This document shows positions 2,223-57,860 of a stretch of 64,000 bases of DNA, piece by piece. Below the pieces are notes generated by a model. It did no database searches. It was given only the letters and a program-made list of their open reading frames with translations, and was not told where the DNA came from. Origin of the DNA: Escherichia phage vB_EcoM-RPN242; sequence record OL656110.1; one strand, 5' to 3'. Each line of letters begins with the position of its first letter. Position 1 is the first letter of the stretch. The position numbers and the translations under genes are program-made.

Positions 2223-2630
2223 ATGAGCACCCTCAAGCCATACTGGAAGACCACAATTCCTCTCCTGCGGCATGGCGATGAAGGGAAGATTCCATACCTA
2301 TCAGCAAGTATTTATTACTCTCAGAACAACAGCATCATTATCACTTTTAATCCATCATTCCATGCCAAGCTGAAGCAACACATGGTTGGGCGACTGGATA
2401 CAACATCAGATATAATCGTGACGTTCAAGATCATGAATGACTCGGATAAACCAGTACGAATCGCAACTCAGGGTGTGTTCGTTAACAACGACGCGGTTGG
2501 AAATGGGATGAGTATCTTTGAAGTTAACCCAGGGGGAACGATCTTGATCAGACTGAGTAATGTGGGTGTGAACTCCCTGCTGTTGGATGGCATCGAACCA
2601 GTGGGAGTTCTTCCGGCGCGGGAGCACTGA
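2223..2630 (+). CDS. hypothetical protein, about 135 aa, on the opposite strand
   Basis: C-terminal two-thirds of plus ORF 1815..2630 looks protein-like (IIITFNPSF..., IVTFKIMNDSDKPVRIATQG...) while the overlapping minus frames are W/H-rich; start uncertain (2151 or 2223). Confidence 0.3.
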   Translation: MSTLKPYWKTTIPLLRHGDEGKIPYLSASIYYSQNNSIIITFNPSFHAKLKQHMVGRLDTTSDIIVTFKIMNDSDKPVRIATQGVFVNNDAVGNGMSIFEVNPGGTILIRLSNVGVNSLLLDGIEPVGVLPAREH

Positions 2631-5813: not shown

Positions 5814-7286
5814 TTAGTTCAAGACATATTTGATCAGTCCACAATTCCAAATCCTGACCAACCCGGCTTCGGTTGCTAACTGGCTTTCTGTTTTGCCTTC
5901 TACGTCATACCCCATGCGAGCAAATGAACCTTTTCTGAAACCGAATTTGTGCTCACGCATAAATGTGCCAGGCTTGTGATATTTGTAGTCTGGCTTCTGT
6001 ACTTCCTCTTCTATGAATCCGTGGGATAGGTAAATGTTGGACAACCTGCTTACAACACACCTATCCCCAAAGGAATAGATTTTGGTGTCGGCAAATTTTC
6101 TTCTGAAGTGTGAAAGAAGTTTACTGAATGCCCCGTGGCAATCATTAGAGGCAAATCTGACTAATTCCAGGCCATCTTTCCTTTTAGTGAATAGCATCAC
6201 GGCTTGTATGACCCCACTCTTGTCAATTAACGATAAATGGTGGGTGGAAGAAACGGAACCTTGTATGTGGTGGTTGTCTAAAAACTCCCTCAAGCCGCTT
6301 ATATTTCCCCAAACGACTTTGTGTTGGCGAGCATATGACGCAGGCGTTTTAATGCCAAGTTTAGCTTTCAGAAGAGATTTGACCACTTCCTGTTTCTCAA
6401 CCCATTCATCTTCCCAGATGTGGATCAACTGGATACCCTGAGATTCACATATTTCAGTCTTTTCCAGGTGATAATATTTCTCTTTAAAAACTTCTGAATG
6501 CCAGTACAGGCCATTAAATTCAATCGCCAATTTGTGTTCAGGGCAATAGATATCCAGTTGTTTACCGGATAATATACTGTAATCAGAAACAGTGTTTACA
6601 ACTCCCATTGAGGTGAGAAACTCGGATATTTCCTTTTCATAAGAAGATTTCTTGTTCCTGATAGAACCATTGCTGAACAACGCACGTTTTAGTATGTTCG
6701 AGTTTTTCATAGGGTTGTCAACACCATAACGTTCTTGTAACGTTGCCAACGCCTTCTCCCTCACACCAGGTAATTGTAGTGTGGAGCAGCTTCCGTATTT
6801 GGATATATTCGAAGTCTCTATGGCTTTCCGACCAATCCCACCTTTACACATAGAAACCTGATAACATTCTTCAGAACAATATGTTCTGTAATCTTTATTA
6901 TTGATATAAAAGTTGGTTTCCTTGGAACACACCGGGCATATTTTCACGGTTCTATTGTACAGCCAAGCTGTGACTTTACAAGCCAAATCTTGTAGGGTGT
7001 TGTGGGTATTGGCGAACGCTAAAAGGTCTACATTGATGTGCTTCATAAGCAGTTCAGATTTGCATTTTTGGATATCCAATTTGTTGTTCTTGGTAAACAT
7101 ATATTTGTAGAAAAATTGGCGATATGATTCCTCGTCAGACAATTCATTCACTGCTTCAAGGAAACCTTCCGGGAGGTTCTTTAGGGTGTTCGATGCGAAG
7201 GTCTTGCAAGCATCTGAACAAAATTTCTTATCTTTCCTGGATGCTTTGAACTGTTCATGGCAGACACTACAGATTACCTGATACAT
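5814..7286 (-). CDS. putative free-standing homing-endonuclease-like protein with Vsr/DUF559-type nuclease motif and two Cys-pair zinc-finger-like elements
   Basis: LAIEFNGLYWHSE matches the Vsr-family (F/I)xDGxxWH signature; CSVCHEQF...CSDAC and CPVCSKE...CSEEC pairs; sits next to the capsid gene as segD does in T4. Track start 7382 runs through the terminator hairpin; re-called to ATG at 7286 (GGAGGAG upstream). Confidence 0.55.
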   Translation of the reverse strand: MYQVICSVCHEQFKASRKDKKFCSDACKTFASNTLKNLPEGFLEAVNELSDEESYRQFFYKYMFTKNNKLDIQKCKSELLMKHINVDLLAFANTHNTLQDLACKVTAWLYNRTVKICPVCSKETNFYINNKDYRTYCSEECYQVSMCKGGIGRKAIETSNISKYGSCSTLQLPGVREKALATLQERYGVDNPMKNSNILKRALFSNGSIRNKKSSYEKEISEFLTSMGVVNTVSDYSILSGKQLDIYCPEHKLAIEFNGLYWHSEVFKEKYYHLEKTEICESQGIQLIHIWEDEWVEKQEVVKSLLKAKLGIKTPASYARQHKVVWGNISGLREFLDNHHIQGSVSSTHHLSLIDKSGVIQAVMLFTKRKDGLELVRFASNDCHGAFSKLLSHFRRKFADTKIYSFGDRCVVSRLSNIYLSHGFIEEEVQKPDYKYHKPGTFMREHKFGFRKGSFARMGYDVEGKTESQLATEAGLVRIWNCGLIKYVLN

Positions 7287-8713: not shown

Positions 8714-8804
8714 GATGGTCATTCCTTACATTGATATTCAGTTAAGTTGAAATTACTTAGTAGTTCAAAATCAAGCCCCCTTTCGAGGGCTGTGGCTGCT
8801 AAAA

Positions 8805-9656
8805 TTAGCCGTTGATGCCGAAGCGACGATTATAGTCGGCCAACTGACGCTTGATAGATTCTTTCAGCTCTTTGTCTGTTTCATCTTCATCGTCATCTTC
8901 ATCGCCTTCTTTCTTAGGCTTTTTGCCTTCGGCTTTAACATCTTTGTTGTCGTCATCGCCGTCTTTACCGCCGACTTTGTCCTGGAAGTCATCGTCATCG
9001 TCATCGCCTTCTTTCTTCACGGACTTACCTTCTACCAGGTTGCGGAAGGTGTGTACGCGGGAAGCGAATTCGCTTTCGGTGGTGAACTGCACAGCTTCCA
9101 GCAGATTGACAACCGTTGCTTTCTTGGTGTCGACCATACCTTCACAGATACGGGCGATCACAGAGTCACGCAGAGTCGCATTCGCGGCTTCTTTGATTTG
9201 ACGGTTTTCGCTTTCGGCAATCGCAGCACGTCGTTCTGCTTCGGTCAGGCGGGCAGTCAGCGCAGCGATCTGGCCGTTTTCGTCGGTGGCAAAGTTGATA
9301 CCAGCTTCTTTCAGAACACCAGTCAGGCCAGTCAGCAGATTTTCAGCCGCTTCACGTTTGATCTGAGCATCGATTCCAGGAGCGTTCTTGTTAGCCCACT
9401 CTTCTACAACAGCATTCAGGAAGCCATCGACTTTGGTCGCGATTTCCATCAAGTGAGACTCTTTCAGCTGAGCAATCTCAGCCTGATGAGCTTCAACCAG
9501 ACGCAGGCGCTCAATGTTGGCAGCGTTTTCGGTTTCTTGAATAGCGTTCAGGCGAGCGGCTTCTACTTTAGATTCCAGCAGACCAGACACTTTATCCAGG
9601 AAGTCGGTGCTGAGGCCGTTAACGCCCTCAAACAGTTTTTGCAATTCAGGTTTCAT
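8805..9656 (-). CDS. prohead scaffold protein (gp22-like)
   Basis: 283 aa, coiled-coil-like with a poly-acidic tract (DDDDDDFQDK...EGDEDDDEDE); positioned between protease and capsid. Confidence 0.7.
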   Translation of the reverse strand: MKPELQKLFEGVNGLSTDFLDKVSGLLESKVEAARLNAIQETENAANIERLRLVEAHQAEIAQLKESHLMEIATKVDGFLNAVVEEWANKNAPGIDAQIKREAAENLLTGLTGVLKEAGINFATDENGQIAALTARLTEAERRAAIAESENRQIKEAANATLRDSVIARICEGMVDTKKATVVNLLEAVQFTTESEFASRVHTFRNLVEGKSVKKEGDDDDDDFQDKVGGKDGDDDNKDVKAEGKKPKKEGDEDDDEDETDKELKESIKRQLADYNRRFGING

Positions 9657-9680
9657 GATTGTTTCCTTCTGAACGATTTT

Positions 9681-9690
9681 CAGTATTTAG
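9681..9690 (-). promoter_or_regulatory. late promoter motif CTAAATACTG upstream of scaffold gene
   Basis: CTAAATA about 25 nt upstream of ATG 9656; AAGGAAA ribosome-binding site. Confidence 0.45.
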
Positions 9691-9701
9691 TGAGGCTGAA
9701 T

Positions 9702-10370
9702 TCAGCCCAGATGTTTCAATGCGATATCGAGGCGGCGCAGGAAGTCGTCTTCTAACTGAATATTGGTTTTCACCAATGAATCGACCACATGCCCCTTAAT
9801 GTCCTTAGGAACCCAAATTCCTGAAGATTCATCAAGCTGCCATTCCACAGATTCGCTCACAGCCTTTACATAACAAACTTGTCCAGAAGGACGGTCGACT
9901 GCATCAACAGCAGTGAGCATAAAGCCGGGTTGAACGTCATCATAGCCGTTCACTGACTTGGTCTCACCAAGGCCACGTGTAGACACGGCCAGGTTGAAGT
10001 CTGCTTCAGCCAGAGCACGAATGATCTGACCTTTCGGTGTATTCAGGATCCGCGCTCGACCGATAGCGTTGGTGCCTTCCCAGCGCAAAGATTCGGTTTT
10101 GAGTGCAGCGTGTTCGATATCGGGGAAAGGATAATCCGGATGCTTGAGTTCACCGATTGCACGACGATCCTGGATATACTCTTTGTCGTATGCTTCGACA
10201 GCAGGGATACCCACCTTTTGGAGATCGTAGTTGCGACCATTACGGTTCACCTGGTTACACATCACGAATGGACCTTCGATGTACATGGCCTTGCCGCCAG
10301 TAGCCGTGGCCGCTTCACCAATCTGAAGATCTTTCCCTATCGCAGTGATCTCACGCAACAGTTTCATCAT
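9702..10370 (-). CDS. prohead protease (gp21-like)
   Basis: 222 aa; sits between prohead core genes and scaffold; AAGGAG upstream. Confidence 0.65.
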   Translation of the reverse strand: MMKLLREITAIGKDLQIGEAATATGGKAMYIEGPFVMCNQVNRNGRNYDLQKVGIPAVEAYDKEYIQDRRAIGELKHPDYPFPDIEHAALKTESLRWEGTNAIGRARILNTPKGQIIRALAEADFNLAVSTRGLGETKSVNGYDDVQPGFMLTAVDAVDRPSGQVCYVKAVSESVEWQLDESSGIWVPKDIKGHVVDSLVKTNIQLEDDFLRRLDIALKHLG

Positions 10371-10903: not shown

Positions 10904-12598
10904 TTATTCTTCACCACCAGGAGGGTTAGTCGCTGGGATGACGTTAGGTCTGAATTTCAGTGGACTGACTTCCCCGCTGCCGAAGCCGCCGGACTCATCT
11001 GCCTGCACTTCAGGGTATTTGCCTTCTTTCTTCTCTTTCGCGATCTTCTCTTGCTGGTCTTTGATGTCTTCATCGGACATACGCAGCAAATTGCGTTGAG
11101 CAAAATCGATAGAGAAGAGAGTGCCGATATATGGTTCGATCTGACCGAGAGCCGCCATACGCTGTGACAAGATTTCGTTCTCTTGTTGTTCACGGATGAA
11201 GCTGTCAGAAGTGAATTCGAACTTGACGAACGGCTTGATCTTCTCATTCCAGTCAGCCTGATCTGTAATGCCTTTCAATATCAGTTGACGGCGCAGAAGT
11301 TCCAGGAAGATACCAGAAGAATAACGACGGCGCAGGCTCGCACAGAACTTGTTGAAGCGCAGTTCTTCCTGTGTGATTTCAGCAAGATTGGAACCACCGA
11401 TGTTGATGGAACCTTCCTCTTGCAGGCGGCTCTTAGGGATCATCAGAGCCTCGTAGAGCTTCTCGCGGAAGTATACCACATGATCCATTTGACCCAGTTG
11501 ATCGCCACCGCCTACGTTGGAGATCTCGGTTGCGTTCTGCCCTTCGCGACGTGGTAGCCAGTAGTCCTCAGCGATACCCATCAAATGAGTGTTACCAGCC
11601 ACCTTACCAGTGGTGCGATCATACGCCAGGCGGTTCTTGAATTTGCCCATCATGGCTTGCATGTATTCTTCGGCCGACTTCTTACCCAGCGTACCCACGT
11701 CGAGATAGAAAGCTCGCTTCTCAGGAGCACGTGTGATCGCATAGATCACCGTTGCATCTTCAGTTGTAACAAGGTTGTTCAGGGGACGGATAGCTGGGTT
11801 CAGCAGGCTTGGTACAACCCCATTCGCCAGAGGCTCTTCACCACTGTCCAGATACACTATGCTCTCATCATCAAACACCAGCTCTTGCTGTGACGGTTGG
11901 AAGTTCTGAGACGTACCGGACTGGCCAGTGAATTGGTTGCGGTTGTAGTTCGGGTTGTAGTAGTATTGAAGTTTTACGTCATTGATGACTTCGATACCGT
12001 CGCGCATCGCCTTTTGAACGATGTACACTGGGCGGATACAGCGTGAGTCCATCATGATGAGTTTGGCGATACCCGCTTTCTTGTTCTTCGGGTCCACTAC
12101 AACGTGGAATGCCTGACGGCCTTCAATATACCATTTGCGGATCTTCTGATACGCTGTGTTGTCAAAGTCAAGGAGATGCATGATCTCTTTGAATGCGTCA
12201 GTGATCTTCTCTTTGACTTCGTCTGTGATGCCATCTACCTTTTCCAGGTTGATGGTTACAGGAGTCTCTTCCTCTTCACAAGTGACGACGTCGTTGACAA
12301 TGATATCCACAGCCTTACGAATCTCAGGCTGCTGAGCCATAGACTGGTACTCTTCGACCAGCTGTTTGACGTTGAGCAACTCATTCTCAACACCAACGAA
12401 ATTGAATGTGTTCGCGCCGCCCTGGAGGATGATGGAACCATCCTGAGAATCGTCCAGCGCAACAACAGTCGCTTTTGAAAGCAACTTCTCTTCTTGGTTC
12501 GTGACCATCTTGTCGGTATCAATCGGCGCTTCTACTTTGCCGCCTCTGCCGAACAAGCCGAAGAACCCATTTCCGAATGCACCATTACCGAATGCCAT
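10904..12598 (-). CDS. portal protein (gp20-like)
   Basis: 564 aa; sits between tube and prohead core genes as in T4. Confidence 0.75.
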   Translation of the reverse strand: MAFGNGAFGNGFFGLFGRGGKVEAPIDTDKMVTNQEEKLLSKATVVALDDSQDGSIILQGGANTFNFVGVENELLNVKQLVEEYQSMAQQPEIRKAVDIIVNDVVTCEEEETPVTINLEKVDGITDEVKEKITDAFKEIMHLLDFDNTAYQKIRKWYIEGRQAFHVVVDPKNKKAGIAKLIMMDSRCIRPVYIVQKAMRDGIEVINDVKLQYYYNPNYNRNQFTGQSGTSQNFQPSQQELVFDDESIVYLDSGEEPLANGVVPSLLNPAIRPLNNLVTTEDATVIYAITRAPEKRAFYLDVGTLGKKSAEEYMQAMMGKFKNRLAYDRTTGKVAGNTHLMGIAEDYWLPRREGQNATEISNVGGGDQLGQMDHVVYFREKLYEALMIPKSRLQEEGSINIGGSNLAEITQEELRFNKFCASLRRRYSSGIFLELLRRQLILKGITDQADWNEKIKPFVKFEFTSDSFIREQQENEILSQRMAALGQIEPYIGTLFSIDFAQRNLLRMSDEDIKDQQEKIAKEKKEGKYPEVQADESGGFGSGEVSPLKFRPNVIPATNPPGGEE

Positions 12599-12663: not shown

Positions 12664-13197
12664 TTAGAGAGACTTGTCTGAGATGGCCTGGAAGTAACGC
12701 AGGTCAACAGTGAACTGAGTATAAGAGTCCATTGCAGACATGTCCAGTTCCAGCTGACCGAGGTTCTGAGGCCAGGCACCCTGAAGGGTCCAGGTCTTGG
12801 TGACGTTGTCATTCGCATCCAACAGTTCCATGATTACATCACGGAAATAATCATCTGGGTTAGCAGACGCACGGTTGTTGTTGCTGCCGTTGATATACTG
12901 CTGCCAGACTTCGAATGCGTTGTACGGGGCGTTGTCCACGACGTTGATGAACGTCACAGGCAGAGCCTCGAAGCGGCGGTCACCTGGGAATGGAAGTTCA
13001 CGACCACCCCATGGGACGAGTATTTCCCCGAGCTGGCCTGTTGGGGTATTTGTGGTCACCGCCAACAGCGAAACATCACGGATAGTATCGCTTCCAGCCA
13101 CGAAGGAAGGGAAGTTAACAGTCACACGCCAACGGTGTTGGCGCTGAACGCCACCCCCGCGTGACATAGCTGCTCTGAATTCATTAACTGTAGCCAT
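12664..13197 (-). CDS. tail tube protein (gp19-like)
   Basis: 177 aa; C-terminal GAWPQNLGQLELDMSAMDSYTQFTVDL resembles the T4 gp19 C-terminus. Confidence 0.75.
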   Translation of the reverse strand: MATVNEFRAAMSRGGGVQRQHRWRVTVNFPSFVAGSDTIRDVSLLAVTTNTPTGQLGEILVPWGGRELPFPGDRRFEALPVTFINVVDNAPYNAFEVWQQYINGSNNNRASANPDDYFRDVIMELLDANDNVTKTWTLQGAWPQNLGQLELDMSAMDSYTQFTVDLRYFQAISDKSL

Positions 13198-13217: not shown

Positions 13218-13931
13218 TTACACAATTCTAATTAGCTGCCAACCCGTCGTGTTCAAACGCTCTGCGGTCGCAGTTTTCCTATGATACACAGACGGTGGTG
13301 GAACTGGAATACCCTTGTCGATGTAATCATAGAGTGCTGAATATTTAAGTCCCAACCTCTCCACGTATTCGCGACAATTCCCGTGGATTTCGTATTCTTC
13401 GCCGGATGGAGATACCAATTTGAATCGCTTGGCATGACCGTTGTTCTTGCCCTTTCTGATTCCAGTTTCAATGCATTTTCGACTAAATGATAATTTACCT
13501 TCTTCTTTCCATTCAACCCCGATCCGACAGCTAATGATTTCTCCTGTTTTCCACCGTGGATCATCGCAATCAACTAAACCGAGATGTTCACCAGTAGAAG
13601 TCAAAACTGCTCCGTGTTTATTGGAAAATGTGGACCCGTCTCCACCCCAGGTCTTGTTGTACCCTTTCTGAGTTGACATGTGGGTTCCGTGTTGCTTTAT
13701 AAGAATGATTTCCAATTCTTTTAGATCTTCCAGGGATTTGGTCTGGGCTAACACTTGAACAGAAAAGGACTCTTCTCCGTACTTTCTTATTGCTTGGTGA
13801 ATAAAGTAATCAGATCCCTTCTGAGCACTATTGCAGTGCTCCCACCACCTTTGCATAGGGTCTCTCGTCGTTATCCCAATATAGGCTTTCTGATTGACTA
13901 GATTTGTAATTTTGTAAACACTTCCGATCAT
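13218..13931 (-). CDS. GIY-YIG homing endonuclease, free-standing
   Basis: N-terminus VYKITNLVNQKAYIGIT...RWWEH is a GIY-YIG signature; inserted between sheath and tube. Confidence 0.8.
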   Translation of the reverse strand: MIGSVYKITNLVNQKAYIGITTRDPMQRWWEHCNSAQKGSDYFIHQAIRKYGEESFSVQVLAQTKSLEDLKELEIILIKQHGTHMSTQKGYNKTWGGDGSTFSNKHGAVLTSTGEHLGLVDCDDPRWKTGEIISCRIGVEWKEEGKLSFSRKCIETGIRKGKNNGHAKRFKLVSPSGEEYEIHGNCREYVERLGLKYSALYDYIDKGIPVPPPSVYHRKTATAERLNTTGWQLIRIV

Positions 13932-13987
13932 TTCGATGCTCTCTCAGTAAAATCGTTCCATTTTAACCCGCGAGAGACCATTGAAAT

Positions 13988-14003
13988 GCCCTCCGAAGAG
14001 GGC
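13988..14003 (-). terminator. hairpin after the sheath gene
   Basis: GCCCTCTTCGGAGGGC on the minus strand directly after the sheath stop; weak U-tract. Confidence 0.45.
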
Positions 14004-14013
14004 ATGGGGTAAA

Positions 14014-15909
14014 TTAAGAAGCGGCTACGATACCACCACCGGATTCGATCTCACTGAATTCCATGTCTGGACGCACGGAAGCAAAATCAAGATACACCCA
14101 ATTTATACTGTACTCTGGTTTCAGCCAGATACCCGCGACCATGGTGTTGGCTGCGATAACATCAGCGGTGTTGTTGTCCTCGTCACACTTCACCATCCCG
14201 TCATAGATCGCGCCCATGTTGGCCAACTGGCGGATATATGGGCGGACAGCGTTGCTGAACAACCCACGAGTGAATGCATCGTTGTTCTCACCAAGGTAGT
14301 ATTTGGCGATGGCTGCGATATTCTGCTCTGCCATAATGAACAGACCACGAACGTTGATGCGGTCGAACGCAGATGGGCGGGTCAGGCCAGTCTTGTCGCC
14401 GTACAACACGATGCCTTCGTTGGAGAAGGTGACGATGCTGTTGATCTGGTTGCGATACAGCACAGCACGCTCATCAGAAGACGCAGACCACGCCATTCGA
14501 TTATAGTTGTTGTATTTACCACGGTTGTGGAACGCCGGAGATTTGTAGATACCCGCGATTTCAATGCTTCGCGCCCAAACACCTGCGGTGCCGCCACAAG
14601 CCGGAATCCAACGCATTTTGTCGTTGTACTTGTCGTACACATACGCCCAGTTGTCATCCATGAAGAAGTAGGAGGAGTCGCGAACAAGGCTTTCACGCCA
14701 GGCCACAACATCATCCATCTCACGGCCACGGTTTCCGACGACCGTATCGCGAAGAGGAGACACGAAGGACACTGTGTCTTTACGCTCGGTGGACAGGTCG
14801 ATCAGTGCCTGCTGCTCAATCAGTTCTTCACAGAAACCGAACACTGGCTTGGCATCATACGCTTCGGCGTTGTTCAGTGCCTGGATAGCCGCAACACGGT
14901 TCCCAGTGTAATCGTCTACACCACCTTCGAGTTCAATCACACCAGCAGCCAGGGTAGTGGCGAAGGTGTACACCCAATTTGAGGTGCCGTTGATCACGTC
15001 TTTGAAGTACGCATTGGATCCATCAGATTTCTTAGAACCCTGAGCGGTCTGCACCAGTTCATACTTCTCGATGATCGTACCGGAAGCACCAACAGTTGTG
15101 ACGGCAGCGGTGGCAGTCAGACCATTCGCGTCTGGAACAATCGCAGTCGCAGCCTGAGGACCGATTGCTTTGTGAGTGACGGTGACGGTGTTGGACTTCA
15201 CGACAACAGAAGAATACACGTCAGACAGGGACGTCAGCGCGGTTCCGATCTTTGTCGCCAGAGTCGCCGGGGTGTCAGCGTCAGTGTACGCCACGGCTTC
15301 ACCAGCAACAGAGATGGAACCAGCAGCGGTGGCAGTACCGGATACAGAGATACGATCAACCTGACTAACAGCGCCAGAAGAGTCGGTAATGCGACCTACT
15401 TTGTCAACGATGGCGATATGGTACTCGCCATCCTGTGGAGCATATGCGAAGTTGTTACGGAATTCCCAGGTCGGGAACAGCGCAGCATCACAGATGTTCA
15501 CAGCAATGTCGTTACCCAGAGAGCCAGCATAGCGGCCTGTCCAGGTAATAGACGCAGATGGGGACGCAGTTTCGAAGTCTAGTTTGTTGCGGATAAGGAT
15601 TGCAGTCTGACCTTTGGTTACAGCGTTGCGTGCCGCCGGACCGACCACACGGGTCACCCATGCAACAGAGCTGTAAGACAGGAAGTCAGCAATCACCAAG
15701 AAGTCGGTGGCAGTTGCATCGTTTGGCTTGAAGAATTTCTTCACCAGACCAGTTTCGCCACCAGTGACCAACACAGGGAGTTCTGCTTCACCCCATTGGA
15801 ATTTGCCGACAGTCGCACCCTGAACAACAACGGATGGAGACGTCTGAAGCGTGGCATCACGCTCAGTCCACTGTACGGACGGCGCAACGCTGAAGCTTTG
15901 AGTTGCCAT
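14014..15909 (-). CDS. tail sheath protein (gp18-like)
   Basis: 631 aa from ATG 15909 (track start 15942 is TTG); follows terminase as in T4; conserved-looking C-terminal domain. Confidence 0.8.
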   Translation of the reverse strand: MATQSFSVAPSVQWTERDATLQTSPSVVVQGATVGKFQWGEAELPVLVTGGETGLVKKFFKPNDATATDFLVIADFLSYSSVAWVTRVVGPAARNAVTKGQTAILIRNKLDFETASPSASITWTGRYAGSLGNDIAVNICDAALFPTWEFRNNFAYAPQDGEYHIAIVDKVGRITDSSGAVSQVDRISVSGTATAAGSISVAGEAVAYTDADTPATLATKIGTALTSLSDVYSSVVVKSNTVTVTHKAIGPQAATAIVPDANGLTATAAVTTVGASGTIIEKYELVQTAQGSKKSDGSNAYFKDVINGTSNWVYTFATTLAAGVIELEGGVDDYTGNRVAAIQALNNAEAYDAKPVFGFCEELIEQQALIDLSTERKDTVSFVSPLRDTVVGNRGREMDDVVAWRESLVRDSSYFFMDDNWAYVYDKYNDKMRWIPACGGTAGVWARSIEIAGIYKSPAFHNRGKYNNYNRMAWSASSDERAVLYRNQINSIVTFSNEGIVLYGDKTGLTRPSAFDRINVRGLFIMAEQNIAAIAKYYLGENNDAFTRGLFSNAVRPYIRQLANMGAIYDGMVKCDEDNNTADVIAANTMVAGIWLKPEYSINWVYLDFASVRPDMEFSEIESGGGIVAAS

Positions 15910-15947
15910 AATCTTATTCCTTCTCTGTAGAGTTTCGCTCAATTTGA

Positions 15948-15961: not shown

Positions 15962-18190
15962 TCACCGTCTCAGCCATTCTTCCATAGACATACCAGAGCG
16001 TTCATCATAAACCTGAATTCCACCGAACCCTGGGATGTTCTCCACAGAGTGAGGATCTGGCGTCGTCATCATGCCCCCAAATGGTAGCATCTGTGATTCT
16101 TCCATCGCAGACAACCGTCCTCTCATATCCACAGAGATATTTGAATTGGTGAGATCACTAAACCATTCTTGTTTCACCGCCCATGCATACAACACGAGGG
16201 GCATTACACAGTCATCATGACAACCATCATCGGCTTCATACCTTGTTCCAGTCCATACGAATGTACTGAGTTCATCTATCGTGTCCTGGTCATCTATCAC
16301 CAGCATTTCACGTTCAATCAGGGCTTTCAGGTTGGCACAGCCGTTTGTGCGCACCTTCTTGTTGGTATTGATACCAGGCTCAGGACGGCGACCACCGATT
16401 CTCTTGCCTGTGCCCTTGGTATCTGTTGTAGTGAAGATGATCTCGGGATATTCAATTTCCTGGTATAGAATTGTGATTACCTGACCACCCACGTCGTTGT
16501 TGGTCTCGACTAGCATCGGGCACGTTCCATACTTCTCGCCCATATCGGCGATTGTGTACGCATACATCATTGGAGGTATCGTGTTATTTCGATACTTGGC
16601 TGCGATCTTGTGAGGATAGTCTGTGATGTCGATAATGGTCAGCACAGAATAATCCCCTTCGACACCCTTGCCTGTATCTGCGATACCCATATAGATGCGC
16701 TTAGGATCGTAGTCGTGATAAATCTTGGTGAACTCGTTCGGCTCCTGATACAGCTTCGAGGTCATCTTGTCCAGACACTTGGCAGGTATCAGTGATCCCA
16801 CAGAACCACGGAACTTAATGCCAAATTCTTGATCGAAACGTGCATCACCCAGCTTCGCCCTTTGTTTGGATTCCCAGTCTGGATCTTTGGTGTACGTTGG
16901 AACACGATACCATGGGACCTCGGTGAGTTTGAAGTCGTTGTATTGTGGGTGTTCTGGGTTCGCCTTGGTGACGATGTCGTAGAACAACCCGCGCTGACCT
17001 TTCGGCGTACTGGTCAGAATACAACGTGAAGTCTCTGCAGATGCAATCGCCGGGAATGTAGACTCCCAGAATTCAAAGTCGTTTTCAATGAACGCCACTT
17101 CGTCCACATACAGGAGCGATACAGATCGACCACGGATGGAGTCGGAAGATGTCGCATAGGCGTAGATCTTTGATCCGTTTTCGAACTCTATCAGCGTGGA
17201 ACCGAACTTCTCACAACCCTGTTGGAGGAAGAATGGCAAATCTTGATATGCTTTGCGAATACGATCTAGGATTTCAATCGCCTGCTTCTCTTTGTTCGCC
17301 AGTACTGCGATCTCTTTGTCGGAGTGGAACATCGCATACCAGAGCAGGAACGCTGCCACGACAGTCGTGTTGTGGCTGAGGAAGCCGTTGGTGTAGTAGC
17401 GCTGATCACTAGATTTCACCTGTAGGTCATACATGTGATGCGTCTCACCAGTCTGCCAAACCTCACGGATTTCTTCTGGACCTTCTGACGTCATGATGTA
17501 TGACCCAGCATTCAGGTCTTTGGCAAATATCTCCTTCATTTCCGGAGTGAAGAATATATGTTCGTCGGCCACGTTAATTCGCCGCCCAGTAACAGTCACA
17601 ATAACGAATTCCGCATATTTCTTCGTCTTATGCGCTGCGATAACCGGAACCCAGCCACTATCGGATTGCACAAAGTAACGCTTGCCGAAGCGGCTGTCCA
17701 CGAACTTGTCATGGTTGCCAATGGTATTCAGCGGCACGGCGTGATTGACGTCCTCGAAGCGACTGTGAAGCTCCCCTATGGTCAGGAGCAACTGCTCTTG
17801 GCTGAGAGTATCGTAAACTGTGACAAGCGTGTCACCTTTTACACATTTCCCAGACTGACGAGCCTGGACGACCGCATTGAATCGATAGTCCTGGAAGTCA
17901 TGGAACAACTGCTTCTGGTAATCGTGCATGTCAAAGAGGATGAAGCCTTTATCGATGGTCGTGATCTTGTAGTAGTTGGCGGCGAAGTAATGGGCGTCCA
18001 TCGCGCACTCGACGAACTCCGATTCTTGTTCGTCGGTTAGCATCAACTCCACACGAGGTGCACGCACAGACGGCTTGCGCATGAACGTTTGGTCCATACG
18101 CAGTCTGACGTCTTCTGTCTTAAACCCCGTCTTGAGCGGGGCGTATTCTACATCACGCTTCTGATACGCCATCGTCTTCACCTTCTCCAT
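15962..18190 (-). CDS. terminase large subunit (gp17-like) containing a mini-intein
   Basis: Walker A reads ARQSGK|C...HN|TTVVAAF, giving ARQSGKTT after excision (T4 gp17 has SRQLGKTT); later region aligns with gp17. Alternative start at 18172. Confidence 0.9.
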   Translation of the reverse strand: MEKVKTMAYQKRDVEYAPLKTGFKTEDVRLRMDQTFMRKPSVRAPRVELMLTDEQESEFVECAMDAHYFAANYYKITTIDKGFILFDMHDYQKQLFHDFQDYRFNAVVQARQSGKCVKGDTLVTVYDTLSQEQLLLTIGELHSRFEDVNHAVPLNTIGNHDKFVDSRFGKRYFVQSDSGWVPVIAAHKTKKYAEFVIVTVTGRRINVADEHIFFTPEMKEIFAKDLNAGSYIMTSEGPEEIREVWQTGETHHMYDLQVKSSDQRYYTNGFLSHNTTVVAAFLLWYAMFHSDKEIAVLANKEKQAIEILDRIRKAYQDLPFFLQQGCEKFGSTLIEFENGSKIYAYATSSDSIRGRSVSLLYVDEVAFIENDFEFWESTFPAIASAETSRCILTSTPKGQRGLFYDIVTKANPEHPQYNDFKLTEVPWYRVPTYTKDPDWESKQRAKLGDARFDQEFGIKFRGSVGSLIPAKCLDKMTSKLYQEPNEFTKIYHDYDPKRIYMGIADTGKGVEGDYSVLTIIDITDYPHKIAAKYRNNTIPPMMYAYTIADMGEKYGTCPMLVETNNDVGGQVITILYQEIEYPEIIFTTTDTKGTGKRIGGRRPEPGINTNKKVRTNGCANLKALIEREMLVIDDQDTIDELSTFVWTGTRYEADDGCHDDCVMPLVLYAWAVKQEWFSDLTNSNISVDMRGRLSAMEESQMLPFGGMMTTPDPHSVENIPGFGGIQVYDERSGMSMEEWLRR
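17369..17845 (-). mobile_element. mini-intein, 159 aa, no endonuclease domain, inside the terminase P-loop
   Basis: Starts with Cys after GK, ends SHN followed by Thr; C-terminal block HHMYDLQVKSSDQRYYTNGFLSHN matches intein F/G blocks; removal restores GKTT. Confidence 0.8.
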
Positions 18191-27140: not shown

Positions 27141-27155
27141 TTTTACAGTTATAAG

Positions 27156-29688: not shown

Positions 29689-29699
29689 TTATAATAAAA

Positions 29700-52016: not shown

Positions 52017-53199
52017 TAAGTTAGCAGCATAGGGGCTTTGGTTGGCGACAACCATCGAATAACTCTCTTAATTGCTGGGAAGTCTCTTTAGAGATAATCA
52101 GCAGCCAAGGTCGGCCACGAAGACCTAAATACTCTGTAACCACGGTGAAGGAGTAAGGTCATGAAGGAAATCAAGAGTCTGTTCTATCGAAATGATTTGG
52201 TAATTGAAGAATCTAAGATAGAAGAATATTTGAAGTTCTGTAAGGAACACAGTTATGATGGTGATGGATACAGTGAACGCCATCATATACTGCCTCAGGC
52301 GCATTATCCTGAGTTCTCTAAAGAAGAATGGAACATTGTAAACCTGTTATATAAAGATCATGTAGAGGCTCATCGCCTGTTGCATGAAGCATTACCAGAA
52401 GATAAATCAGCGTTCTTCGCCTACTTCATGATGAAATCCCATAACGGGGAACTAAGTGAGGAATTGAGAAGAAAGAATGTTGAAATGCTGACGGGAGAGG
52501 GAAATCCTTCGAAGAGGGAAGATGTCAGAAGAAAGATATCCAAATCTAAGAAGGGTGTTAGAAGAGCAGATATGAAGGGTAAGGCTTATTTCGGCGCTGA
52601 TAAAGAAACAGCTGAAAGAATTAAAGCCAATTCCAGTCTTGTTCACAAAGGCACTGTCCCCGTAAGACTCCTGGATGGTAGTGTTATCAAAGTTTCAACG
52701 CAAGACCCGAGATATTTGAGTGGTGAGTTGAAATGTATAATAGGTGCAAAGAAAGGTCAGGTGGGACCAAACACCGACCCAAAAGCGAAGAAGAAATTTA
52801 AAGATTCTTTAGAGAAAAGGAAGGAAATGTTTGCCAGAATGAGTGGGGAAGAAATAACCACTCATTGCTTGACACAACAGGATTTAGGTAAGAAGACTGT
52901 AGAGTGGGGCAAGTTGGCAAGAAACTTCAAACGACTCTTTGGTTACGCTGGGTTAAACCCAGATGATTTCCTTGAAGTAGTGGGTGACAAGGTTCAACGA
53001 CTATCGAAAGCAAGACCGACGACTAAGCGTCTGATCTGAAGCGAGTAGAGTAGGGGCAAGCGCCTCGAAATGGAGAGAATCTCTAGACAGTTCTGGAGAT
53101 TGTGATATAGTCTGGCCTGTATGGTGACATACAGCAGTGTTCGGTAAACTGAATGACGAACACGGGGGATGAAATAGCGAGCATCCCTGAACATAAGCG
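52017..53199 (+). mobile_element. group I intron carrying an HNH homing endonuclease gene
   Basis: R-like element GTTCAACGACTA at 52992-53003 and S-like GATATAGTC at 53104-53112; 5' exon ends in U, intron ends in G; splicing gives DLNSL|YPHIIQQYNLGPETI. Confidence 0.7.
52161..53039 (+). CDS. HNH homing endonuclease (intron-encoded)
   Basis: ERHHILPQ...NIVNLLYKDHVEAHRLLHE is an HNH motif; GGAG upstream; 3' end overlaps the intron core. Confidence 0.8.
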   Translation: MKEIKSLFYRNDLVIEESKIEEYLKFCKEHSYDGDGYSERHHILPQAHYPEFSKEEWNIVNLLYKDHVEAHRLLHEALPEDKSAFFAYFMMKSHNGELSEELRRKNVEMLTGEGNPSKREDVRRKISKSKKGVRRADMKGKAYFGADKETAERIKANSSLVHKGTVPVRLLDGSVIKVSTQDPRYLSGELKCIIGAKKGQVGPNTDPKAKKKFKDSLEKRKEMFARMSGEEITTHCLTQQDLGKKTVEWGKLARNFKRLFGYAGLNPDDFLEVVGDKVQRLSKARPTTKRLI

Positions 53200-54781
53200 A
53201 TATCCACACATCATTCAGCAATACAACCTCGGTCCAGAGACTATCGTTGGCGACAAACACCAGCGCCGCGAGATTATTGAGGCTATGTGTGAAGAGCTGG
53301 CTGCTCAGATGAATAACATGGCAACGCCGATGCACAAACGTCGGTTGATGAAAGCCCTTCACGACAAGCTGTTGCGTGCGGTTGACGAACGCCTGCAGGT
53401 TGTTGATGAGTTGGTTGCCCTGGGTGAGTTCCACTTTGAAACCCTGCGCCGCTACAACGTGTCGTTCACGCCGAACGTTCAATTCTTCAGCAACGAGAAG
53501 ATGTCGTTCCTGTCTGAAATCATGCGTGGTATCTACAGCGACCGTAAAGTAGAGAAGGCCAAGGGTCTGAAGTATGAGCAGTGGGCTGGCTGGTGTAAAG
53601 AGATGTCGAAGGGCGACTTCCATCTTGAGTCTGCCATGAAGTCTCGCTACTATGACCCAGAGTGGTATGAAGAGCACAAGAACATTGATCTTGATGCCCT
53701 GACCGAAGTGATGAAGAAGTGGGAAGACCTGGGCGTCGCTCAAGATACCCTACAGCAAGGTCTGAAGATCTTGATGAACGCAGGTTATGGCGCTATCTCA
53801 AACGTCTGGTTCAAAGAGTACTTCAACCTCAACATTGCCGAAGCCATCACCACATCCGGTCAGCTGATCAACAAGTGGAACAAGCGTTACACTGATGACT
53901 ATCTGAACAAGCTGTGTGGTACAACAGGCCAGGACTTCGTCATCGCAGGGGATACCGACTCCAACTACATCTGTATTGAGCGTCTTGTCAAGCAGTTGTG
54001 GCCTGATGTTACTGACCATCATGCTATGGTTGATAATATCGACCAATGGATCAAAGACAACTACCAGCCGAAGACCAATGAGTGGGCACAGCTTCTGTGT
54101 AACACCATGAACGGATTTGAACAGCGCATGGTGTGGGAGCGTGAGGTCATTGCGTCAGCCGCTGTCTGGCGAGCCAAGAAGATGTATGCCATGGCCGTGT
54201 ACGACAGTGAGGGTATCAAGTATGAGAAGCCGAAGATCAAGTTCAAAGGTCTGGAAGCCCGCAAGTCCACCACGCCGGAATGGTGTCGTGAGCGCCTTGT
54301 CAAGTGCTATGAGAAGATCCTACTCGGCACCGAAGAGGAAGTACAGACGCTCATCTCCCAGTACAAAGAGGAGTATATGAAACTCTCTGTAGACGATATC
54401 GCCAAGGCGTCAGGCGTGTCCGACATAGAGAAGTGTGTGGCTGCTGACGGATCGTTTATATCTGGTGCTCATTTTGCTGCCAAGGCGTGTGTGGGCTACA
54501 ACCGTCTGGTTGAGAAGAACGAAGATCTGGGTCTACCGATGATCGAGTCGGGTGATAAGGTACAGATGGTGTTGTTGAAGCCGGGCAACCCGTTTGGGCA
54601 GAACTACTTTGCATATCCTGAGTTCTTCCCAGAGGAGCTTGGTCTGGGCAAATGGGTGGATTATCAGGCGGCCTTTGAGAAGTCCTTCATTGATCCGATT
54701 CAGTCTATCCTCGACGTGGTCGGCTGGTCACACAAGCGCCGTGTGAACCTTCTTGCCATGATGCAAAAGAAGAAAGGTTGA
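53200..54781 (+). CDS. DNA polymerase, family B, exon 2 (motif A second half, motif C, thumb)
   Basis: Begins ...YPHIIQQYNLGPETI; contains VIAGDTDSNYI (motif C). The track's ATG at 53153 lies inside the intron. Confidence 0.85.
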
Positions 54782-55970: not shown

Positions 55971-56276
55971 GTGCAAGAACAATCCAAGTTTGGGGAAACC
56001 CCAGACAAGCGTTCCGGTGATAGCGACATGGATAGCGTGATTAACCATGTGAACAACTTCATTCGCCAGCAGGAGACTCCAACTCCTATCGGTGCAGCCA
56101 AGGCTCTTCATGATGTACTGGTGAAGATCGGCCAGCGCTCTGAAGCGGATGAAATCTTCTATAACTTCGACGACCAGTATAAAGTTAAGTTTGAAGAGAA
56201 TGGCTGCCCACAGGTTGCTGTGTTCTGGGCACCTTGGCTGGGCGGCGTGAGCTGGCGTATTGAGGATGCTGTGTAA
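55971..56276 (+). CDS. hypothetical protein, 101 aa
   Basis: GTG start with strong AGGAGG 6 nt upstream. Confidence 0.5.
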   Translation: MQEQSKFGETPDKRSGDSDMDSVINHVNNFIRQQETPTPIGAAKALHDVLVKIGQRSEADEIFYNFDDQYKVKFEENGCPQVAVFWAPWLGGVSWRIEDAV

Positions 56277-56962
56277 TGCTGTCGCTTTACCTGATCACGA
56301 ATCTCGTCAATCATAAATTCTATATCGGTGTCACCTCAGAACCGGATAGGCGGTTGGCTGAGCATAAGTGTGGTCAGGGGAGCATTGCATTACAACGAGC
56401 GTTCAAGAAATACGGTGAAGACCAGTTCAAGTTTGAAGTTCTGTTCCGAGGGAAAGATTCGGTTATCCTTCAGATAGAGTCTGAACTGGTCTGCCAGGAG
56501 ATCCTTGACTCTGGGTGGTGCTACAACATGGTCGTCGGGGGTGGGAAGCCTCCATTGGCCACGCCTAATTCATCCGCAAAGAGTGCTGCAACCCGCAAAC
56601 GTTTGATCGCTGAGGGTAAGATCAAGCCACCTCCCCGCATATCGGCTGAGTCACAAAGAAAGGGTGGTGAAACCAGAAGGAAACTGATTTCCGAGGGAGT
56701 GATAAAGAAGCCATTACCTCCACCTTCAAAAGCCCAGAGGCGAGCAGGTGAGACAAGGAAACAGTTGCATGCTCTTGGCCTGATAGACATTGGTCCTGGC
56801 CGCGATGAAACGATTTACAAATGGCAGCACAAAGATGGTCGCATTGTTGAGTTAAGAAGATGCGATATGGAACTTCAATATGGCCTCCCTTCTGGTAATA
56901 TAACGAATCTCTTGAAAGGTAGGGCTAAAACATGTCTCGGTTGGAGAATAATGAATGGCTAA
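56276..56962 (+). CDS. GIY-YIG homing endonuclease with C-terminal NUMOD-like repeats
   Basis: LYLITNLVNHKFYIGVT...RRLAEH; three repeats of TRK.L...G.I; paralogous to 13218..13931. Confidence 0.8.
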   Translation: MLSLYLITNLVNHKFYIGVTSEPDRRLAEHKCGQGSIALQRAFKKYGEDQFKFEVLFRGKDSVILQIESELVCQEILDSGWCYNMVVGGGKPPLATPNSSAKSAATRKRLIAEGKIKPPPRISAESQRKGGETRRKLISEGVIKKPLPPPSKAQRRAGETRKQLHALGLIDIGPGRDETIYKWQHKDGRIVELRRCDMELQYGLPSGNITNLLKGRAKTCLGWRIMNG

Positions 56963-57860
56963 AATAATTGTAGTGAAGGGAACAAGTGGCGTGGGTAAGG
57001 GTACGAGAGTGGTCCAGTTCATCGAATGGCTGCGCACTAAGCTGGAGCCTACCGAACTGACCTACACCGTTGGTGACAAGACTCGCCCGTTTGGCTTGAA
57101 GTTCGGAGAGCTGAAGTTAATCTTCGTTGGACAGTACACCGTGTCTAACAAATCCGGCCTGGCTTCCTGGACTTCAATGGATGCAATCCATGCTGCTACA
57201 GGCTCAGGCGATATTGCTCGTGATCTAATCAAGTGCTGGTTGGTTCAGGGATACACTCTGGTGTGCGAGGGAGAACCTCTCATGCTATCGGACAAATGGC
57301 GTCCTGAATGGATGTTCAAGAACTATCCGATTGAATCATTGGCGCTGCTGTACTTTGCGTACCCCGACCGCTATCAGTACGATGCTCGTATCCGTGGTCG
57401 CTCTGGTAAAGAAGCAGGGAACTCCGGCTGGTCGCGCAACGAATCTTACTACAAGGAGTTTGAGAAGTCGAAGGCCGAAATGTTGGCACTGGGGTGGAAC
57501 GTTTTGGCAGACGTGTACAGTGGGCAGGATGTTGAGTATACAAAACCTTCTCAGAATGAGTGGGAAATGGATCCACGTAGCGAACTGGCAGTCATGCCGT
57601 TTGATGCCCCTCTTTGGGTTGTCGGGGATGCTATCGCTTATCAGATGGATATCGGCGCGGTTAACCTTGACATCAAAGATTTTTATGCCTACTGTGAAAC
57701 CAATCCAATGACCCGTGAGGTCGGCGGTGATGATCCTTTGGCGCACAGAGTGCCTGAGAAGCCGCAGAAGGCATCCAAAACTAAAACCAAGGCGAGCGCC
57801 CAGCCAGAAGCAACGAAGGCAGCGTCGCGCTCTCTCCTTGACCTGATGAAGAAGGGGTGA
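56955..57860 (+). CDS. P-loop kinase, candidate 5-hydroxymethyl-dU DNA kinase
   Basis: KGTSGVGKGT P-loop (NMP-kinase-like GxxGxGKGT); 301 aa without a HAD motif, so not a T4 Pnk-type kinase/phosphatase. Confidence 0.5.
   Translation: MAKIIVVKGTSGVGKGTRVVQFIEWLRTKLEPTELTYTVGDKTRPFGLKFGELKLIFVGQYTVSNKSGLASWTSMDAIHAATGSGDIARDLIKCWLVQGYTLVCEGEPLMLSDKWRPEWMFKNYPIESLALLYFAYPDRYQYDARIRGRSGKEAGNSGWSRNESYYKEFEKSKAEMLALGWNVLADVYSGQDVEYTKPSQNEWEMDPRSELAVMPFDAPLWVVGDAIAYQMDIGAVNLDIKDFYAYCETNPMTREVGGDDPLAHRVPEKPQKASKTKTKASAQPEATKAASRSLLDLMKKG

Follow-up and report, generated by a model that had tools for sequence, protein, structure and literature searches.

Phage T4 encodes SegA to SegG, free-standing GIY-YIG homing endonucleases, of which SegF and SegG are known for "intronless homing". 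I-HmuI of SPO1 and I-TevIII of RB3 are HNH endonucleases of phage group I introns. Among the Ackermannviridae, Dickeya phage LIMEstone1 carries 14 homing endonucleases (the set F-LimI to F-LimXI and I-LimI to I-LimIII) and three introns (PMC3296691), and the homing nucleases of 14 Agtrevirus genomes vary without relation to phylogeny (PMC10791037). The CBA120 orf195, an orthologue of the short type B gene described below, has been called a segD homologue (PMC3184105).

We analyzed a stretch of 64,000 nucleotides from Escherichia phage vB_EcoM-RPN242 (OL656110.1), referred to here as the window. Its source is a Vi01-like phage of the Ackermannviridae, Agtrevirus-type, which shares family and gene order with LIMEstone1. 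The sheath-tube region shows 98.4% identity with Escherichia phage YX22 (Aglimvirinae) and has matches in 279 Ackermannviridae records. Four homing endonuclease genes, one intron and one mini-intein were identified in the window. The five elements listed in the original prediction, namely two GIY-YIG genes, a Vsr-like ORF, an intron-borne HNH gene and a mini-intein, all exist where it placed them once the coordinates were rechecked, and together they take up some 7% of the window (about 4.5 kb). These elements and the genes associated with them are:

5814..7286, minus strand: free-standing homing endonuclease gene, Hef-like and probably EDxHD (Vsr-fold), located downstream of the gene for the major capsid protein (PHROG, PDB match)
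12664..13197, minus strand: tail tube gene, gp19-like (Pfam and PHROG)
13218..13931, minus strand: free-standing GIY-YIG homing endonuclease gene, "type A", 237 aa (Pfam, PHROG, I-TevI alignment)
14014..15942, minus strand: tail sheath gene, gp18-like (Pfam and PHROG)
17369..17845, minus strand: mini-intein of 159 aa, terL residues 116-274 (junction residues, absence in Bue1)
52017..53200 (+/-1 nt), plus strand: probable group I intron, splitting the gene for a family B DNA polymerase (absence in relatives, RF00028)
52161..53039, plus strand: intron-encoded homing endonuclease gene, putatively HNH, 292 aa (phrog_12434)
56276..56962, plus strand: second free-standing GIY-YIG gene, "SegD-like", 228 aa, here GIY2 (Pfam, PHROG)
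56955..57860, plus strand: 5-hmdU DNA kinase 2 gene, for thymidine hypermodification (Pfam HMUD2, E 2e-150)

No further endonuclease genes were found in 10 other ORFs, and none is annotated in a 96% identical relative. An Rfam search of the whole window at gathering thresholds returned two tRNAs and nothing else. Close relatives differ in having or missing every element but the intein, with precise boundaries, and the top database match varies by locus: YX22 for the sheath-tube region, A221 (99.8%) for GIY2 plus the kinase gene and vB_EcoM-ZQ1 for the intron. The analysis as a whole establishes the identity of the domains, the exact boundaries of the insertions, their presence/absence polymorphism, the mosaicism of the flanks and purifying selection. 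The comparison with insert-free relatives that had been proposed as a check revealed empty-site alleles, so the objection that the inserts might sit at identical positions in all relatives does not stand.

The ORF predicted as an insertion between the sheath and tube genes is intact, with 14014-15942 and 12664-13197 as its flanks. Its product matches Pfam GIY-YIG (PF01541) with an E-value of 5.4e-9 and 36.7 bits (cut-off 22.6 bits) and the PHROG homing endonuclease families phrog_314/5123 (E 1e-38), and it can be aligned to the I-TevI catalytic domain (1MK0). We looked for the core residues of I-TevI: the Tyr of GIY, the Tyr of YIG, Arg27, His31, Glu75 and Asn90. In the comparison with 1MK0/1LN0 the VYK...YIG motif is present, the R in QRWWEH faces R27 and a His faces H31, while a Glu (LKELEI) and an Asn (GYNKTWGG), located by eye only, are candidates. 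Orthologues of type A occur at the same site in other genera with 80-95% identity and are under purifying selection (dN/dS 0.05-0.13), dS in the endonuclease gene being about 1 between the window and fGh-Ecl02. As in the T4 Seg proteins, a catalytic core is followed by a separate C-terminal region in both GIY-YIG proteins of the window; their genes are likewise intergenic between conserved essential genes and present or absent among related phages, and the mosaic flanks extend over a few hundred bases, as co-conversion predicts. In sequence, the similarity to I-TevI is confined to the core. The insertion sites, sheath/tube and DUF7254/5-hmdU kinase, differ from those of the T4 seg genes, and homing is here a prediction.

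The type A gene is absent from Salmonella phage P46FS4 and Erwinia phage Bue1, where the sheath-tube gap is only 77-78 bp. Compared with the empty P46FS4 allele, the insert begins past a conserved hairpin and stops ahead of CTAATTAGAATTGTGTAA. The slot is occupied in 24 of the 26 genomes compared, and at least eight occupancy states were distinguished, tube starts in the divergent loci being placed from tblastn coordinates:

Empty (P46FS4, Bue1): 2/26
Type A alone, the window counted in: 5/26
A': 1/26
Short B: 6/26
A+B in tandem: 4/26
C+B, opposite-strand: 2/26
C alone: 1/26
Hef-like gene: 3/26
Hef remnant (LHE287 and L004): 2/26

LIMEstone1 has the Hef-like F-LimVIII in this slot instead of type A, and next to it a 35-aa C-terminal type A remnant. 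The last 18 nt of the type A ORF are also the end of the type B ORF and are found in the "empty" P46FS4, which could thus be a deletion derivative and not a naive site; alternatively, the shared 18 nt would be resident sequence into which the inserts read. The surroundings of the slot are mosaic. Between fGh-Ecl02 and the window the flanks are 97-100% identical, but 13401-13931 reaches only 64-77%, and the final ~90 nt of the sheath gene form a divergent patch (77%). The first ~150-225 nt of the tube gene correspond to an exchange tract that is tied to insert type and spans genus boundaries. Over tube nucleotides 1-150, two carriers of the Hef-like insert, Kuttervirus maane and L010, show 93-99% identity with the window and other Kutterviruses show 71-84%; downstream of the tract all converge. 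This tract could also come from ordinary recombination at a conserved gene and not from endonuclease-induced repair. When carriers and non-carriers were compared, substitutions in the final part of the sheath gene and the first part of the tube gene tracked lineage and insert type, and the two empty alleles are too few for a target site to be defined from them.

Two hairpins lie between the sheath stop codon and the type A start codon:

13986..14005, minus strand: G+C-rich terminator-like hairpin just 3' of the sheath stop codon (fold)
13932..13985, minus strand: leader hairpin, proposed translational brake (fold, leader comparison)

The terminator-like hairpin is invariant in six orthologous leaders and also present in the empty P46FS4 allele; retained with or without an insert, it is the left edge of the insertion. 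The 3' arm of the leader hairpin masks a GAGAG Shine-Dalgarno-like sequence and stops 1 nt short of the GIY-YIG start codon. Its stem is preserved in the six leaders although three of them have a 25-nt apical deletion. A single compensatory pair and a z-score of only -1.86 give weak support to this hairpin, which may act as a translational brake. A sigma-70 promoter scan upstream of the type A gene gave nothing convincing, and no TATAAATA-type late promoter was visible in the 82-nt leader. Placed behind the sheath terminator hairpin, with no obvious promoter of its own and with its ribosome-binding site buried in a hairpin, the gene would likely be expressed by low and delayed read-through.

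Judged from its sequence, 13218-13931 is very probably an active free-standing Seg-type GIY-YIG gene in a family-wide sheath/tube hotspot, spreading by intronless homing. That the enzyme cleaves DNA, where its target site lies, that the gene homes and that the hairpin controls GIY-YIG expression are inferences. In a mixed infection the type A enzyme would cut an insert-free relative near the sheath-tube junction, most probably where the tube gene starts or where the sheath gene ends, as far as the positions of the mosaic tracts indicate. Phage recombination would repair the break with the endonuclease-bearing genome as template, and the repair would carry the endonuclease gene plus up to a few hundred flanking bases into the recipient, that is, intronless homing with co-conversion. 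The same workings are proposed for the Hef-like gene by the capsid gene, the HNH gene in the polymerase intron and GIY2 before the 5-hmdU kinase gene. The DNA of this phage is expected to carry hypermodified thymidine, and cleavage could be affected by it.

GIY2 matches Pfam GIY-YIG with an E-value of 5.2e-8 and 33.5 bits (cut-off 22.6) and phrog_19446 with an E-value of 1e-102. Its insertion point is the TAATG in which the stop and start codons of the DUF7254 and 5-hmdU DNA kinase genes overlap: the empty allele reads ...TAATGGCTAAA... and the window ...TAATG[684 nt]AATGGCTAAA... Of 23 genomes, 3 have the gene and at least 13 have an empty site; its orthologues in other genera occupy this same site with 80-95% identity and are called "SegD-like" in their records. 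The "NUMOD-like repeats" attributed to this protein do exist as three tandem repeats (S-x(3-7)-[AE]TR[KR]xLxxxGxI, at residues 99, 126 and 151), but the NUMOD label is unproven, as Pfam NUMOD3 (PF07460) gave no match at E <= 1 and residues 203-223 yielded a 13.4-bit match to I-HmuI_NUMOD-like and nothing more. Relative to YX22 and CECAV_050, GIY2 and the kinase gene were exchanged as one unit, with kinase alleles ~50% divergent, and the kinase gene is probably a hitch-hiker or a target of GIY2. The two alleles occur among phages otherwise 95-99% identical. Allele 1, that of the window, has the free-standing GIY-YIG gene in front, and allele 2 is an in-frame fusion to a different GIY-YIG-like domain; LIMEstone1 has the fused form in place of GIY2.

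Beside these results we note a joint proposal that we consider doubtful as a whole. Its first part is that five or more endonuclease lineages of two nuclease superfamilies (GIY-YIG A, A', B and C, and the Hef-like genes) may replace each other at the Ackermannviridae sheath-tube junction, leaving remnants behind and dragging 150-225 nt of the tube gene across genera. Its second part is that each endonuclease could target the other kinase allele, or that a DNA-modification enzyme could have captured a nuclease. Neither the sheath-tube arena nor the two-allele kinase pattern was found described in the literature searched.

The large ORF beside the capsid gene, originally described as Vsr-like, is a real endonuclease gene by its match to phrog_3339 "homing endonuclease" (E 2e-156), its Pfam Vsr match being below threshold. 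A further match, with an E-value of 0.003 and 19.8 bits, is to the catalytic domain of I-Bth0305I (PDB 3R3P). Residues 216-303 align with this domain, including the AIE.NG.YW.S block, and the weak Pfam matches to Vsr, DUF559 and MTES_1575, all under the cut-off, fall on the same stretch, so that the whole likeness to Vsr-fold families is sub-threshold. Set beside I-Bth0305I and Hef of T4-related phages, the protein is far longer, at 490 aa; it has Cys-rich repeats at its N terminus and a C-terminal domain, and its gene stands free and is not carried by an intron or intein. According to the annotation of the matching LIMEstone1 region, it is a homologue of F-LimVII. Three of 22 IMG/VR relatives have the ORF and the others are without it; among INPHARED records it is covered to at least 80% in 22 of 285.

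The mini-intein was also correctly recognized. It lies in the large terminase and interrupts its Walker A (P-loop) motif (SGK|C...HN|T), with the junctions SGK|CVKGD...FLSHN|TTVV, and is exactly absent in frame from the Erwinia phage Bue1 terminase, which reads ARQSGKTTVVAAF (SGKTTVV). Because the Pfam Intein_splicing (PF14890) score of 28.8 bits is under the 35.8-bit cut-off, the call rests on the junction residues and this in-frame absence. Like other phage terminase inteins it has Cys1, a C-terminal His-Asn followed by Thr, and an insertion point in the P-loop ATPase motif, but it differs from them as a 159-aa mini-intein without a homing endonuclease domain that is nearly fixed. It is annotated in phages Maynard and Magnus and occurs in 284 records. 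Being nearly fixed in the Ackermannviridae, it is not currently mobile by itself; it is a fixed passenger with no sign of current traffic. The idea that the genome is a hotspot of selfish-element traffic thus holds for the mobile endonuclease elements, with their polymorphic presence, but not for the intein.

An alternative to homing as the reason for the maintenance of these genes is that they serve the phage as weapons: by destroying or shutting out the genomes of relatives in the same cell (marker exclusion), they would favor the adjacent structural and DNA-modification genes. Such a role is possible, though we consider it unlikely. It would account for the strong purifying selection, for the filled sheath-tube slot in most genomes, for the essential neighbors (tube, capsid, polymerase, 5-hmdU kinase) and for the exchange of an endonuclease and a divergent kinase allele as a single cassette; the work of Goodrich-Blair and Shub (1996), which PMC3296691 cites, was counted in its favor as well. 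Yet a weapon does not exclude homing, a purely selfish cycle fits the same data, and loss and decay, as seen in the ORF-deleted A221 intron, the Hef remnants and the empty alleles, would be unexpected for a strongly beneficial gene.

That the ORFs are instead decaying relics of old invasions whose nuclease activity is gone is very unlikely. Decay does occur in the family, as the Hef remnants, the ORF-deleted intron and the LIMEstone1 type A remnant attest, and the HNH ORF lacks a Pfam HNH match. All four endonuclease ORFs of the window are, however, full length compared with their PHROG profiles, and the alignment of the GIY-YIG core to I-TevI covers the Tyr, Arg and His positions. The reading of dead relics was rejected on the dN/dS values of 0.05-0.13.

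Spread by homing would also involve the polymerase gene, which is split by a 1183-1184 nt insertion within motif A (DLNSL|YPH). The HNH gene predicted there is real, lies inside this insertion and overlaps the intron core with its 3' end. Its product matches phrog_12434 "HNH endonuclease" (E 1e-159) and shows an ERHHILP...NIVNL...HVEAH pattern, although no Pfam HNH family matched it at E <= 1. The closest relatives, YX22 and vB_CECAV_050, lack the intron at the exact position, which restores DLNSLYPH: across the junction, the sequence of intron-less relatives is exactly AACTCCCTGTATCCTCAC (N S L Y P H), and silent changes flank the site in them. A relaxed search with RF00028, whose gathering score is 50 bits, gave 31.2 bits (E 1e-5) for the window intron, where the model is split by the 879-nt ORF, and 58.8 bits for the ORF-deleted copy of A221, which is near-identical to the window intron outside the deleted ORF (two differences in the aligned stretches). 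The intron is present in 2 of 23 IMG/VR genomes and in 29 of 265 INPHARED records at a coverage of at least 80%. The matching LIMEstone1 region, a homologue with 88% nucleotide identity, is annotated as an HNH intron endonuclease; LIMEstone1 has one more polymerase intron, with no counterpart in the window. As in the introns of I-HmuI and I-TevIII, a group I core carries its ORF in a peripheral loop and interrupts an essential replication gene in its most conserved motif, and intron-less, intron-plus-ORF and ORF-deleted forms exist side by side among relatives. In contrast to them, the host gene is a family B polymerase interrupted at motif A, Pfam HNH models do not match the endonuclease, and splicing is predicted. 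Split gp43 has been described for some T4-related phages, and here too the polymerase might be made as two polypeptides, the intervening DNA being a simple mobile insert that is not spliced; a stop codon 15 nt past the junction would end the first part and the second contains an in-frame ATG at 53153. This is highly improbable given the group I core, recognizable in the window and above the gathering score in its A221 twin, and the exact regeneration of the invariant DLNSLYPH on excision.

Least of all can we accept a recent duplication within the genome followed by re-insertion at a second site, as originally suggested from the near-identical N-termini of the two GIY-YIG proteins, because this similarity, though real (11 of 14 residues), is only the conserved GIY...YIG motif block of a catalytic core to which all significant BLASTP similarity is confined (45% identity over 62 aa, 47 bits), the best PHROG families differ, type A is nearer to the lineages that fill the same slot in other phages (A' with 45% and C with 28%, both over the full length, and B with 42-44%) than to GIY2, and each gene has its 80-95% identical orthologues at its own site in other genera. 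By their sequences, type A and GIY2 are old separate lineages.

The selfish-DNA traffic in the window is genuine, yet traffic of this kind is already documented for the Ackermannviridae and for T4. In annotations, a split polymerase and a long terminase should here be read as intron and intein artefacts and not as damaged genes, and the 237-aa sheath-tube ORF as a mobile passenger and not as a tail component. Near-identical Ackermannviridae phages can be told apart by their endonuclease content and not only by their tail spikes. If the proposed succession of lineages is true, the sheath-tube arena would be a natural series for the study of competition and succession among homing endonucleases. 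Endonuclease genes appear to shift pieces of flanking structural and DNA-modification genes between genera, which is relevant to the mixing of phages in therapeutic and biocontrol cocktails.

Over the 3.4 kb around the type A GIY-YIG homing endonuclease gene, the window shares 98.4% identity with Escherichia phage YX22 (Ackermannviridae, Aglimvirinae), and this stretch has matches in 279 Ackermannviridae records from Salmonella, Klebsiella, Escherichia, Dickeya, Serratia and Shigella phages. The genes and insertions concerned are the following:

Features of the window
5814-7286: Vsr-like endonuclease ORF
7391-8722: major capsid gene
10904-12598, minus strand: portal gene
12664-13197, minus strand: tail tube gene
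13218-13931, minus strand: type A GIY-YIG ORF, 237 aa
14014-15942, minus strand: tail sheath gene
15962-18190, minus strand: large terminase gene
17369-17845: mini-intein of 159 aa, terminase residues 116-274, in the Walker A motif
52017-53200 (+/-1 nt): insertion of 1183-1184 nt in the polymerase gene, between DLNSL and YPH
52161-53039: HNH ORF inside the polymerase insertion
56276-56962, plus strand: second GIY-YIG gene by Pfam and PHROG (GIY2)

All five elements of the original prediction (two GIY-YIG genes, Vsr-like ORF, intron-borne HNH ORF and mini-intein) proved real. They take up about 4.5 kb in total (some 7% of the window), and neither ten other window ORFs nor the annotated genes of a relative at 96% identity included a further endonuclease gene. 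The type A ORF scores 36.7 bits against Pfam GIY-YIG (cut-off 22.6), matches PHROG homing-endonuclease families over its full length and can be aligned to the I-TevI catalytic domain. The predicted NUMOD-like repeats of GIY2 exist as three tandem repeats of 18-20 residues, but Pfam does not recognize NUMOD3 in them. The capsid-adjacent ORF is a member of phrog_3339 (E 2e-156), and over residues 216-303 it can be aligned to the catalytic domain of I-Bth0305I (PDB 3R3P, E 0.003); its Pfam matches (Vsr, DUF559, MTES_1575) are all under threshold. In LIMEstone1 the corresponding region carries the annotation F-LimVII, one of the Hef-like endonucleases of that phage (PMC3296691). Three of 22 genomes carry a copy of this capsid-adjacent gene.

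Elsewhere in the window, a second tail-tube-related ORF (1451-2254, minus strand; phrog_45, E 9e-35) is distant from the main tube gene, and its counterpart in vB_CECAV_050 carries the annotation "tail tube protein". At 44865-45282 the only tRNAs are tRNA-Met and tRNA-Ser; YX22 likewise has two tRNAs, and vB_CECAV_050 (96% identical) has five at this position (Met, Trp, Asn, Tyr, Ser). The largest block unaligned with YX22 or vB_CECAV_050 (26835-36590) is the tail-spike gene cluster, in keeping with the variability known for Ackermannviridae tail spikes.

We compared the stretch from the sheath stop codon to the tube start codon in the window, 22 IMG/VR loci found with the tube protein and three GenBank relatives:

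Occupancy of the sheath-tube junction
Salmonella phage P46FS4 (Agtrevirus) and Erwinia phage Bue1: empty, 77-78 bp
Five genomes, window counted in: type A alone
One genome: A' variant (45% identical)
Six genomes: type B, a short 152-aa GIY-YIG gene (orf195 of CBA120, termed a segD homologue; PMC3184105)
Four genomes: A and B in tandem
Two genomes: type C (opposite-strand GIY-YIG) and B
One genome: type C alone
Three genomes (LIMEstone1, Kuttervirus maane, one more): Hef-like gene, 603-608 aa, opposite strand
Two genomes: truncated Hef-like remains, one being LHE287 (flanks 98% identical to the window)

The junction is an insertion hotspot. A lack of empty-site alleles would have refuted the original prediction, and P46FS4 and Bue1 have such alleles. 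Beside its Hef-like gene, LIMEstone1 retains a 35-aa C-terminal remnant of type A. LIMEstone1 (Limestonevirus), Kuttervirus maane and locus L010 all have a Hef-like insert together with a tube 5' end 92-99% like that of the window.

Concerning the insert boundaries, a G+C-rich hairpin (13986-14005) follows the sheath stop codon in occupied and empty alleles alike. The left edge of the type A insert lies just past it, and the right edge lies before CTAATTAGAATTGTGTAA. This sequence, found 20 nt ahead of the tube start codon, closes the endonuclease ORF with its last five codons and stop codon. The 18 nt ending the type A ORF recur at the end of the type B ORF and in the empty P46FS4 allele; they may be resident sequence into which the inserts read, or else P46FS4 is an allele left after insert loss. 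A second hairpin (13932-13985) is predicted to pair the GAGAG ribosome-binding sequence and to stop 1 nt short of the AUG. Its stem is kept in six orthologous leaders, three of them with a 25-nt apical deletion, with covariation at one pair only, and a scan of the type A leader found no promoter-like site. Expression of type A is probably low: its transcripts would come from read-through out of the sheath gene, and the second hairpin would mask their translation. Such low, hairpin-masked expression resembles that of T4 intron and seg endonuclease genes. Type A orthologues show dN/dS values of 0.05-0.13, indicating that the protein is under selection.

The sequences around the insert are mosaic. 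The flanks of fGh-Ecl02 are 97-100% identical to those of the window, yet the N-terminal two thirds of its endonuclease gene (13401-13931) show only 64-77% identity, with dS about 1, and identity returns to 98-100% in the C-terminal third (13218-13400); the last 90 nt or so of the sheath gene (14014-14100) form another patch of 77% identity. This mosaic implies recombination with a divergent allele and suggests a breakpoint between the catalytic and C-terminal parts of the endonuclease. On the tube side, the first two 75-nt bins of the tube gene match the window at 99% and 93% identity in two Kutterviruses with Hef-like inserts (Kuttervirus maane and L010) and at 84% and 71-75% in other Kutterviruses; from the third bin onward all Kutterviruses are alike. 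LIMEstone1 reaches 97, 97 and 92% in the first three bins over a baseline near 80-88%. Locus L009 is the converse case: its portal gene is 95-99% identical to that of the window, its tube gene only 80% and 69% over the first 150 nt. By these sequence comparisons, the first 225 nt or so of the tube gene (12970-13197) form an exchange tract between genera. It is possible that ordinary recombination, without an endonuclease, gave rise to the tube tracts. Insert-adjacent tracts of a few hundred bases shared across genera are the expected trace of co-conversion in endonuclease-induced repair, and the 5' end of the tube gene is likely the target region of the endonuclease.

The original prediction also took the two GIY-YIG genes to be consistent with duplication and re-insertion. 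BLASTP aligned the two proteins across 62 catalytic-core residues (45% identity), with no further similarity, and each has orthologues at its own site in other genera, which contradicts a recent duplication. Type A is also closer to A', B and C, the GIY-YIG lineages that occupy its site in other phages, than it is to GIY2. Judged from their sequences, the two proteins are not recent duplicates; the interpretation as a whole is partly supported, holding for the mobile elements and failing on this point.

GIY2 lies between a DUF7254 gene and the gene for 5-hmdU DNA kinase 2 (Pfam HMUD2, E 2e-150). Its insertion site is the TAATG at which the stop and start codons of these two genes overlap, and the insertion restores AATG for the kinase. 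GIY2 is present in three of 23 genomes and missing from at least 13. In YX22, vB_CECAV_050, LIMEstone1 and two other genomes (fused-ORF loci L027:4645-6243, L081 about 8610-10210, L072 and L066), a single ORF of about 532 aa occupies the slot (window 56276-57860). At the N-terminus of this ORF, a divergent GIY-YIG-like domain (phrog_15209, phrog_314; no Pfam match) is fused in frame to an HMUD2 kinase only about 48-50% identical to that of the window. The genes flanking the slot are 95-99% identical, and homology returns 126 nt ahead of the kinase stop (window 57735). Speculatively, two divergent hypermodification-kinase alleles, each paired with a different endonuclease, would be compatible with mutual marker exclusion.

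The polymerase intron is missing at exactly the same position in YX22 and vB_CECAV_050, where the junction reads AAC TCC CTG TAT CCT, with silent differences from the exon edges in the window. The window intron scores only 31.2 bits in Rfam because the ORF splits the model. A221 (L087 918-1385) carries the same intron minus the HNH ORF, lost by two deletions between short direct repeats (GGAAAT and GAGTGGGG), and this form scores 58.8 bits, over the Rfam group I gathering score. Close relatives thus include intron-less, ORF-containing and ORF-deleted forms, the pattern expected from the homing cycle. The intron is found in two of 23 IMG/VR genomes, both with a second polymerase intron missing from the window. 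LIMEstone1 and Kuttervirus maane (L081, L084) have a second polymerase insertion, of about 915 nt, at second-exon residues 133/156 (about window 53600), missing in the window and 21 other genomes.

The terminase intein begins with Cys1 and ends in His-Asn followed by Thr. As it occurs in 284 records at 80% coverage or more and is missing only from Erwinia phages Bue1 and phiEa2809, it is essentially fixed. Its alleles fall into classes of 95-100% and 74-76% amino acid identity to the window that cut across genera (Agtrevirus Ag3, 74.8%; Kuttervirus PhiSH19, 96%).

The best database match changes by locus: YX22 for the sheath-tube region, A221 (99.8%) for GIY2 and the kinase, and vB_EcoM-ZQ1 (98.8%) for the intron. 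This fits the published variation of homing nuclease content among Agtrevirus genomes, which is unrelated to phylogeny (PMC10791037). T4 has about 15 homing endonuclease genes and LIMEstone1 has 14, three introns among them (PMC3296691); two or three were stated for CBA120, ViI and Ag3 (PMC3184105). LIMEstone1 counterparts of the window elements are F-LimVII and the polymerase-intron HNH endonuclease, for which the GenBank record uses the name I-LimII and the table of the paper I-LimIII (PMC3296691); others appear in GenBank as "SegD-like protein" and as the "intein" of Maynard and Magnus. Since these counterparts are already named or annotated in GenBank and the literature, the homing elements are real and already known, and the value of the finding lies in correct annotation.
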